Shown piece by piece: positions 27,127 through 30,109 of a stretch of 64,000 nucleotides of DNA. A program made the position numbers and the translations under genes. The notes under the pieces are model-generated. The model was not told where the DNA came from and did no database searches. It saw nothing but the letters and a program-made list of their open reading frames with translations. The stretch lies in NCBI RefSeq assembly GCF_013315695.1, contig NZ_CP054353.1, one strand, 5' to 3'. Each line of letters starts with the position of its first letter. Position 1 is the stretch's first letter. Source of the stretch: Escherichia coli. GTDB lineage: Bacteria; Pseudomonadota; Gammaproteobacteria; Enterobacterales; Enterobacteriaceae.

Positions 27127-27198
27127 TGAAGTGGCACACTGAATTTGGCCACCTGAACAGAGGTGATATGCTCACCTCAGAACAACACAGGTGCTCCA

Positions 27199-27498
27199 AT
27201 GAAAAAAAGAAATTTTAGCGCAGAGTTTAAACGCGAATCCGCTCAACTGGTTGTTGACCAGAAATACACGGTGGCAGATGCAGCCAGCGCTATGGATGTC
27301 GGCCTTTCCACAATGACGCGATGGGTGAAACAATTACGTGATGAGCGGCAGGGAAAAACACCAAAAGCCTCCCCCATTACCCCGGAACAAATTGAAATCC
27401 GTGAGCTGAGGAAAAAGCTACAACGCATTGAAATGGAGAATGAAATATTAAAAAAGGCCGCGCTCTTGATGTCAGACTCCCTGAACAGTTCTCGATAA
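27199..27498 (+). CDS. insN: IS911 transposase OrfA
   Basis: [24 protein letters not shown] protein. Confidence 0.85.
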
Positions 27499-27524
27499 TC
27501 GGGAAACTCAGAGCGCATTATCCT

Positions 27525-28364
27525 GTGGCCACACTCTGCCATGTGTTCGGGGTTCATCGCAGCAGCTACAGATACTGGAAAAACCGTCCTGAAAAACCAG
27601 ACGGCAGACGGGCTGTATTACGCAGTCAGGTACTTGAGCTACATGGCATCAGCCACGGTTCGGCCGGAGCAAGAAGCATTGCCACAATGGCAACCCGGAG
27701 AGGCTACCAGATGGGACGCTGGCTTGCTGGCAGGCTCATGAAAGAGCTGGGGCTGGTCAGCTGTCAGCAGCCGACTCACCGGTATAAACGTGGTGGTCAT
27801 GAACATGTTGCTATCCCTAACTACCTTGAACGGCAGTTCGCCGTGACCGAGCCAAATCAGGTGTGGTGCGGTGATGTGACCTATATCTGGACGGGTAAGC
27901 GCTGGGCGTACCTCGCCGTTGTTCTCGACCTGTTCGCAAGAAAACCAGTGGGCTGGGCCATGTCGTTCTCGCCGGACAGCAGGCTCACCATGAAAGCGCT
28001 GGAAATGGCATGGGAAACCCGTGGTAAACCCGGCGGGGTGATGTTCCACAGCGATCAGGGTAGTCATTATACGAGCAGGCAGTTCCGGCAGTTATTGTGG
28101 CGATACCAGATCACGCAGAGTATGAGCCGGCGCGGAAACTGCTGGGATAACAGCCCAATGGAACGCTTCTTCAGGAGTCTGAAGAACGAATGGATGCCGG
28201 TGGTGGGTTACGTAAGCTTCAGCGATGCAGCTCACGCAATAACGGACTATATCGTTGGATATTACAGCGCACTAAGACCGCACGAATATAATGGTGGGTT
28301 ACCACCAAACGAATCAGAAAACCGATACTGGAAAAACTCTAACGCGGTGGCCAGTTTTTGTTGA
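27525..28364 (+). CDS. insO: IS911 transposase OrfB (DDE catalytic domain)
   Basis: DDE integrase-core motifs; normally expressed by -1 frameshift from orfA. Confidence 0.85.
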
Positions 28365-30109
28365 CCACTTCAAACGGACTGGGAGAACAGGTACAACATG
28401 TGCTGAATGATAATCCCTTCTCCGGTCACCTGTTTATCTTCCGTGGCCGACGGGGTGACACCGTCAAAATTCTTTGGGCTGATGCTGATGGTCTGTGCCT
28501 GTTCACCAAACGCCTGGAGGAAGGCCAGTTTATCTGGCCTGCGGTACGTGACGGCAAGGTATCCATTACCCGCTCGCAACTGGCAATGCTCCTCGATAAG
28601 CTGGACTGGCGTCAGCCAAAAACATCCAGCCGTAACTCACTGACAATGTTGTAAAAAACTCCTGACCGCATTATAAAAACGGTCATGAGTCAGAAATACC
28701 TCATTCGCATCGCAGAGCTGGAAAGGTTGCTCTCTGAGCAGGCTGAAGCCCTCCGTCAGAAAGACCAGCAACTGAGTCTGGTTGAAGAGACGGAAGCCTT
28801 CCTGCGCTCTGCACTGACACGTGCCGAAGAAAAGATCGAAGAAGATGAACGGGAAATAGAACATCTGCGGGCTCAGATAGAAAAACTGCGCCGGATGCTG
28901 TTCGGTACCCGTTCTGAAAAACTGCGTCGTGAAGTTGATCTGGCTGAGGCTCTGCTGAAACAACGTGAACAGGACAGCGATCGTTACAGTGGGCGGGAAG
29001 ACGATCCTCAGGTTCCCCGCCAGTTGCGACAGTCGCGCCATCGTCGTCCGTTACCGGCACACCTTCCCCGTGAAATACACCGCCTGGAGCCAGAAGAAAG
29101 CTGTTGCCCGGAGTGTGGCGGTGAGCTGGATTATCTGGGGGAAGTCAGCGCTGAACAGCTGGAACTGGTGAGCAGTGCCCTGAAAGTGATCCGCACAGAA
29201 CGGGTAAAAAAAGCCTGTACAAAATGTGACTGTATTGTTGAAGCACCGGCGCCGTCCCGCCCGATAGAGCGTGGTATCGCGGGCCCCGGATTACTTGCCC
29301 GCGTGTTAACGGGAAAATACTGCGAACATCTGCCACTGTATCGTCAGAGTGAAATCTTTGCCCGCCAGGGTGTCGAACTGAGCCGGGCCTTACTCTCCAA
29401 CTGGGTTGACGCGTGCTGCCAGTTAATGACACCGGTGAATGATGCCCTGTACCGTTATGTAATGAACACCCGCAAGGTTCACACTGATGACACACCGGTA
29501 AAGGTACTGGCACCGGGTCAGAAAAAGGCGAAAACAGGGCGTATCTGGACGTATGTCCGGGATGATCGCAATGTGGGTTCGTCATCTCCTCCAGCGGTCT
29601 GGTTCGCGTACTCGCCGAACCGGCAGGGGAAACACCCGGAGCAACACCTCCGCCCCTTCCGGGGTATCCTGCAGGCGGATGCGTTCACAGGTTACGACAG
29701 GTTGTTCAGTGCAGAACGTGAAGGTGGTGCACTGACAGAAGTTGCGTGCTGGGCCCATGCCCGGCGAAAAATCCACGATGTATACATCAGCAGCAAAAGT
29801 GCGACGGCAGAAGAAGCCCTGAAGCGAATCAGTGAACTGTACGCCATCGAGGATGAAATACGGGGATTACCGGAGTCAGAGCGTCTTGCCGTCAGGCAGC
29901 AGCGAAGCAAAGTGTTACTGACGTCGCTGCATGAATGGATGGTGGAGAAGAATGGTACGCTGTCGAAAAAATCCAGACTGGGCGAAGCGTTCAGCTATGT
30001 ACTGAATCAGTGGGATGCCCTCTGTTATTACAGTGATGACGGTCTGGCGGAGGCGGATAATAATGCTGCGGAAAGAGCGCTTCGTGCAGTCTGTCTCGGA
30101 AAGAAAAAC

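Follow-up and report, generated by a model that had tools for sequence, protein, structure and literature searches.

Junction of an integrase gene, IS911 and ISEc23

The window, a 64,000-nt stretch of the Escherichia coli contig NZ_CP054353.1, contains an IS911 copy (c1) lying between the remains of two other elements, a P4-type integrase gene on its left and an IS66-family element on its right. Over 25600-29600 it is 100% identical to the chromosome of E. coli EcPF7 (NZ_CP054232.1). A repeat of the 3' end of leuX precedes the integrase gene, and a second IS911-family copy (c2) is present to the right. The features are as follows.

25708..25752, plus strand: leuX 3'-end repeat, 45 bp, 97.8% identity to 15313-15357
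25949..27126, plus strand: P4-type (IntB-like) tyrosine integrase pseudogene (int), from translation, allele comparison, Pfam and RefSeq
27127..28372, plus strand: IS911 copy c1, 1,246 bp; left inverted repeat (IRL) at approximately 27127-27162, right inverted repeat (IRR) at approximately 28337-28372
28373..28654, plus strand: ISEc23 (IS66 family) tnpB with the first 23 codons missing, from alignment to intact ISEc23
28685..31773, plus strand: remaining ISEc23, with tnpC split by ISEc45; right end at approximately 31773, from BLAST and RefSeq
41509..42750, plus strand: IS911-family copy c2, 94.4% identical to c1 and in the same orientation

Copy c1 begins with TGAAGTGGCACAC at 27127 and ends with GACCACTTCA at 28372. 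Its 36-bp inverted repeats are imperfect, matching at 24 of 36 positions including all eight terminal ones, and carry the IS911 tips TGAAGTGG...CCACTTCA; the leftmost 75 bp are identical to K-12 IS911B. Both orfA (27199-27498, with a match to HTH_Tnp_1, PF01527) and orfB (27525-28364, with a match to rve, PF00665) are open. There is an A6G slippery site at 27450-27456, the two frames overlap in the -1 register, and the conceptual OrfAB product is 388 aa long. DNA identity to the IS of strain XH989, which is labelled IS911 by PGAP and was used as the reference, is 97%, with 36 substitutions and one 2-nt indel in 1,248 columns. By its terminal repeats, its orfA/orfB arrangement with the A6G frameshift site and its nucleotide identity, c1 is identified as IS911 (IS3 family), with which it shares all of these features, and it offers no mechanistic novelty.

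A preliminary description of this DNA had placed a complete IS911 at 27127-28372. The boundaries are exact at both inverted repeats and the identification stands. The word complete applies to the two ends and to orfA and orfB, but not to the element throughout. Copy c1 differs from IS911 in the absence of 3 bp (TAC) directly 3' of the slippery site, the gap lying between 27458 and 27459, and its transposase is a frameshifted pseudogene in the RefSeq (PGAP) annotation.

A simple IS911 insertion generates a 3-bp (sometimes 4-bp) target-site duplication. The ten bases adjoining c1 are GGTTGATGTT on the left and AACGGACTGG on the right; the direct flanks, GTT and AAC, reveal no 3- or 4-bp duplication; the preliminary description had asked for this check. 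The absence is to be expected in a rearranged copy and leaves the identity of the element unaffected. The same account had described both flanks as gene fragments of different elements, and this is also the case, the P4-type integrase gene lacking its 3' end and tnpB its start. Missing target duplications commonly arise from recombination between IS copies or from adjacent deletions, IS3 family included (PMC11708052), and the combination of a lost duplication with unrelated flanks, as seen at c1, is a textbook scar of IS-anchored deletion or recombination (PMC11708052).

That c1 is a simple insertion with a decayed target duplication, or that the arrangement is an assembly artefact, is a general possibility with nothing further to commend it, and can be dismissed with near certainty. 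The identities of the flanks refute the former, as they derive from two unrelated genes and not from one interrupted gene. Four independent complete genomes share the double junction, int/IS911 together with IS911/ΔtnpB, and 47 have the left one, so that an artefact of assembly can be excluded.

On the right, the tnpB remnant begins at codon 24; its first 69 bp are gone, as are tnpA and the IRL of ISEc23. What is left is 99.7% identical to intact ISEc23 over 28368-30126 and 31554-31773 (BLAST). The match of tnpB to PF05717 covers profile positions 17-100 of 101 only; with this partial domain, no tnpA or IRL and a tnpC that is present but split, the gene does not qualify as an IS66-family TnpB and is, on alignment, a fragment of an IS66-family (ISEc23) member, cut at the N-terminus as the preliminary description had it. 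Compared with ISEc23 itself, the whole is a dead remnant. Within its tnpC, at approximately 30127-31553, lies an IS110-family element (annotated ISEc45; 377-aa transposase, minus strand). Because part of ISEc45 is also found in strain JSWP006, this insertion probably predates the split between the window and JSWP006 lineages.

Truncation and decay of the integrase gene

The integrase gene encodes the domains Arm-DNA-bind_3 (PF13356), Phage_int_M (PF22022) and Phage_integrase (PF00589) (Pfam). Relative to an intact leuX integrase homologue of 416 residues (96% aa identity), it keeps residues 1-392 and has lost the last 24 codons, and its reading frame continues for five codons into IS911. Both the catalytic domain as defined by Pfam (residues 206-384) and the catalytic tyrosine of the RAAY motif are kept, the lost tail lying beyond them. 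There are in-frame stop codons at 26222-26224 (codon 92) and 26861-26863 (codon 305, R305), and RefSeq describes the gene as 'internal stop; missing C-terminus'. The gene has the domains and the tRNA-adjacent position of a P4-type integrase without an intact full-length frame. In relatives it lies approximately 200 bp from leuX; its counterpart in the window follows the leuX 3' repeat at 25708-25752.

Genomes of the MSHS 472 type have the same int/IS911 junction, with an open frame of 397 codons and neither of the stop codons of the window. The stop at codon 305 is common to the window and to L005-type genomes, whose int is interrupted by another IS 74 bp short of the IS911 junction position. 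The codon-92 stop occurs in the window and is absent from MSHS 472 and L005. By parsimony, truncation of int would have come first and the nonsense codons later. The changes that clearly inactivate the window integrase are its two stop codons.

The preliminary description had stated that the island lost its integrase. This is correct in so far as the junction cuts off the last 24 codons, but the catalytic domain and tyrosine are kept, and the stop codons are absent from some relatives sharing the junction. The accompanying proposal, that the truncated integrase explains fixation of the island, is no more than plausible, the window excluding the distal end of the island and its att site.

No intact copy of the window int allele was found among 5,426 complete E. 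coli genomes, in which the closest intact genes have approximately 85% DNA identity; the remaining copies of this allele end at 27052, where an IS629-like element interrupts them. The int of genomes that keep the DNA between int and IS911 (K-12-type, XH989) is a different allele, with 78% aa identity to that of the window. Comparison with MSHS 472 reveals 44 differences in the first ~391 bp of int (window 25949-26339; positions 9245-9635 of the MSHS 472 locus compared) and two in the other ~800 bp. This distribution shows a mosaic gene with an internal recombination breakpoint, the first 391 bp of the MSHS 472 gene being from another allele.

Distribution of the junctions and proposed order of events

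The collection of 5,426 genomes was also used for junction counts. The yjhE'/IS911 junction, characteristic of K-12 KpLE2, is present in 1,438 genomes and int/IS911 in 47, while a contiguous, single-piece match to IS911/ΔtnpB is found in six; four genomes contain both int/IS911 and IS911/ΔtnpB. In JSWP006 and MINF_7C, IS911/ΔtnpB has a different left flank, and int/IS911 is followed by three other right flanks, including those of UMNK88 and MSHS 472. As each junction occurs with other partner flanks, the two are best explained as separate events. No plasmid in PLSDB has the IS911/ΔtnpB junction, and a plasmid origin for it was rejected on this basis.

The gene order in XH989 is leuX-int-yjgX'-IS4-nanX-nanY-ythA-yjhD-yjhE', IS911, ΔDUF2254-BCCT; this strain joins a K-12-type left flank to the DUF2254-BCCT genes found to the right of IS911 in the window. 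The distance from int to IS911 is approximately 8 kb in XH989 and 9 kb in K-12, and is occupied by yjgX', IS4, nanX, nanY, ythA, yjhD and yjhE'. These are related genomes that retain intervening sequence, the comparison by which the preliminary description had proposed that its deletion be checked. The breakpoints at either end of the element are nested. At the right end (IRR) they fall, on the window sequence, at 28373 in the window, 33594 in XH989 and 33877 in UMNK88; at the left end (IRL) they fall in yjhE' in K-12 and XH989, at int codon 392 in the window and at approximately 25589 in JSWP006. In the last strain, the start of the integrase gene of the neighbouring island (~25589 of the window) adjoins IRL, and the att repeat and the whole of the old int have been removed.

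Taken together, these comparisons make it probable that c1 is a long-resident element of a KpLE2-type island at tRNA-leuX, and that its flanks are the scars of separate rearrangements, each proceeding from one end of the IS. Copy c1 occupies the place in the island that, in K-12, holds the 5' portion of 'IS911B'. The ancestral order would have been leuX-int-yjgX'...nanXY-yjhD-yjhE', IS911, ΔtnpB-tnpC(ISEc23)..., continuing as ...TetR-DUF2254-BCCT-IS600-lpxM-virK-capU-shf, a second IS911-like copy and yjhV-fecEDCBARI. From an ancestor with yjhE'/IS911/ΔtnpB, the XH989 lineage would have lost DNA on the right and the window lineage DNA on the left up to int, with UMNK88 as a sub-lineage of the window-type left deletion that subsequently lost DNA on the right. 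In the window lineage, a leftward deletion from IRL, running from yjhE' back to int codon 393, would have created int/IS911, and IS911/ΔtnpB would be the older of its two junctions. The deletion step would have cost the integrase only its 24-residue C-terminal tail, the two nonsense codons arising later. No genome with yjhE'/IS911/ΔtnpB was found among the 5,426, and the proposed ancestor is hypothetical. As the genomes with intervening DNA carry a different int allele, the deleted content is deduced from a mosaic relative and not from a direct ancestor. Searches for the two reciprocal junctions, the 5' part of ISEc23 with IRL and IRR with the 3' remainder of int, found neither, which also counts against this reading.

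IS3-family elements transpose by a copy-out-paste-in mechanism. For this reason, the likeliest route to the left junction would begin with a second IS911 inserting locally into int, after which the two copies, in direct orientation, would undergo homologous recombination; an adjacent deletion made by the transposase is the alternative. Both routes would end in a single IS without a target duplication, and the sequence alone cannot separate them.

The preliminary description had viewed the whole as the signature of an IS-mediated deletion. This may be retained for the left junction, given the intervening DNA kept in XH989 and K-12, but not as a single deletion joining int to tnpB. Such a deletion, following insertion of IS911 into the tnpB of ISEc23 and in effect producing both truncations at once, would account for the missing target duplication and for two flanks that are both cut off, and no genome shows a left neighbour of ΔtnpB from before the arrival of IS911. 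The independent distribution of IS911/ΔtnpB and int/IS911, and the presence of yjhE' to the left of IS911 at the equivalent island place in XH989, nevertheless make it improbable. The view that both truncations stem from a single deletion, or that such a deletion alone inactivated the integrase, is corrected by the analysis; it appears instead that one resident IS911 has repeatedly trimmed the leuX island from both ends in different E. coli lineages.

Recombination between IS911 copies has also remodelled the locus. Copy c2, the flanks of which (CCT and GAC) contain no target duplication, lies at the site of K-12 'IS911B-1', adjoining yjhV and fecE. In MSHS 472 the integrase gene is followed by a chimeric IS and then by the right flank of c2 and the fec genes. 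The bases of this IS are of the c1 type at positions 4-24 and, from position 69 onwards, mostly of the c2 type; the 14 kb between the copies are gone. From this chimera, c2 is identified as the recombination partner of c1 in MSHS 472-type genomes, and the chimera and the 14-kb loss show directly that the region is remodelled by homologous recombination between IS911 copies. The IS911 copies at the leuX-island locus are mosaic, so that recombination following horizontal transfer could have swapped flanks and given the appearance of a simple series of deletions.

An origin of the scar without any deletion in place can be envisaged along these lines. The int/IS911 junction would have formed elsewhere, for example by simple insertion into the int of another leuX island, and been joined to ΔtnpB by recombination between IS911 copies after transfer or tandem integration. 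The window int allele does differ from that of genomes retaining nanXY-yjhE', the int gene is mosaic, tandem islands occur at leuX and flank swapping between IS911 copies is documented in MSHS 472. Even so, the 3' end of int and the partner flanked by GTT would still have to be lost, which leads back to an IS-anchored deletion, and no IRR/int-3' junction was found; this origin is accordingly regarded as quite unlikely. The search for that junction used a 200-bp synthetic query of IRR, GTT and the 3' remainder of int, to which the one match of at least 80% coverage consists of two non-contiguous pieces over 386 bp. A 13-nt extension in several records was rejected as this junction, as it reflects a chance GTGGGTGGTGG flank. 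A synthetic query for the reciprocal junction, the 5' part of ISEc23 ending ...CCTTCAAC followed by the IRL of IS911, gave only two-piece matches, from IS insertions elsewhere.

Two smaller features of c1 and its junctions recall the chemistry of transposition. The TAC gap (27458/27459) is exactly at the point at which IS30, with a 2-bp AC duplication, is inserted in the equivalent IS911 of K-12, UMNK88 and JSWP006, in the plus orientation in JSWP006 and the minus orientation in UMNK88 and K-12. The gap may have been left behind when an IS30 was lost, or may have arisen independently as a microdeletion at a hot spot for IS30. In K-12, IS30 splits the other IS911 as well (PMC9333248). At both junctions of the window, the lost target resembles an IS911 tip shifted by one base: on the left (27120-27134), GCAGTGG of int compares with GAAGTGG of IRL, and on the right (28365-28380), CCTTCA of tnpB compares with ACTTCA of IRR. 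An inverted-repeat-targeted mode of insertion is reported for IS911, and tip-like motifs at the junctions would fit this. The motifs are, however, absent from the UMNK88, XH989 and JSWP006 breakpoints, where they were sought, and were rejected as a general rule; those at the two window junctions may be due to chance. It is doubtful that the gap and the tip-like targets together reflect transposase chemistry (an IS30-loss footprint and inverted-repeat-targeted insertion) and not chance.

The leuX island and comparison with K-12 KpLE2

The tRNA-Leu(CAA) gene leuX lies at 15271-15355, and the sequence at 15313-15357 covers its 3' end. The repeat of this sequence at 25708-25752 is, from its position, identified as the proximal limit of the older island, in front of which a newer island is integrated in tandem. 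The newer island, of approximately 10.4 kb (15356-25707), is situated between the att repeats 15313-15357 and 25708-25752. Its genes encode a DNA cytosine methyltransferase and an Eco29kI-family restriction enzyme, a recombinase and Kiwa kwaA/kwaB, and on the minus strand, at 24310-25587, a tyrosine integrase of its own. JSWP006 has this island as well, and it is missing from the three other double-junction genomes.

Two copies of an IS1F-plus-flank sequence (30741-31800 and 46614-49001 of the JSWP006 locus compared) enclose the stretch running from IS911 to Δshf in JSWP006, which also has two IS911::IS30 copies with IS30 in opposite orientations. The IS1F-plus-flank sequence is single in the window (51424-53799 compared) and ends at 52469 beside an IS3-family 3' fragment.

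All of the parts at this locus (IS911, ISEc23, a P4-type leuX integrase and a KpLE2-type island) are known and already in the RefSeq annotation. IS-anchored decay of islands is routine and well understood, and the scar matters little beyond bookkeeping. KpLE2 and its P4 integrase have been described, as has an IS-interrupted KpLE2 integrase in strain Crooks (PMC3032704). The window island and K-12 KpLE2 (intB...IS911B::IS30D...yjhV-fec) use the same tRNA site and a P4-type integrase, have IS911 at the same place and in the same orientation, and contain a second IS911-like copy beside yjhV-fecE. In contrast to K-12, the window has a different int allele, lacks the yjgX-nanXY-yjhE' segment and keeps a module of approximately 13 kb (ΔISEc23, TetR, DUF2254, BCCT, lpxM, virK, capU, shf) that is absent in K-12. 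The flanks of K-12 IS911B are yjhE' on the left and yjhV on the right, unlike those of the window, and K-12 intB is a divergent allele. K-12 was consequently rejected as a direct comparator for the flanks, and became useful once XH989 linked the two arrangements.

The K-12 copies 'IS911B' (334 bp) and 'IS911B-1' (795 bp) are at the sites of c1 and c2, respectively. Comparison of K-12 4507125-4509801 with window 27127-27458, 37033-37350 and 41960-43954 reveals that the two are separated in K-12 by nothing more than IS30D and a 318-bp piece of an IS600-like element. This suggests that K-12 KpLE2 derives by deletion from a larger island, which contained the BCCT gene and the lpxM-virK-capU-shf module.
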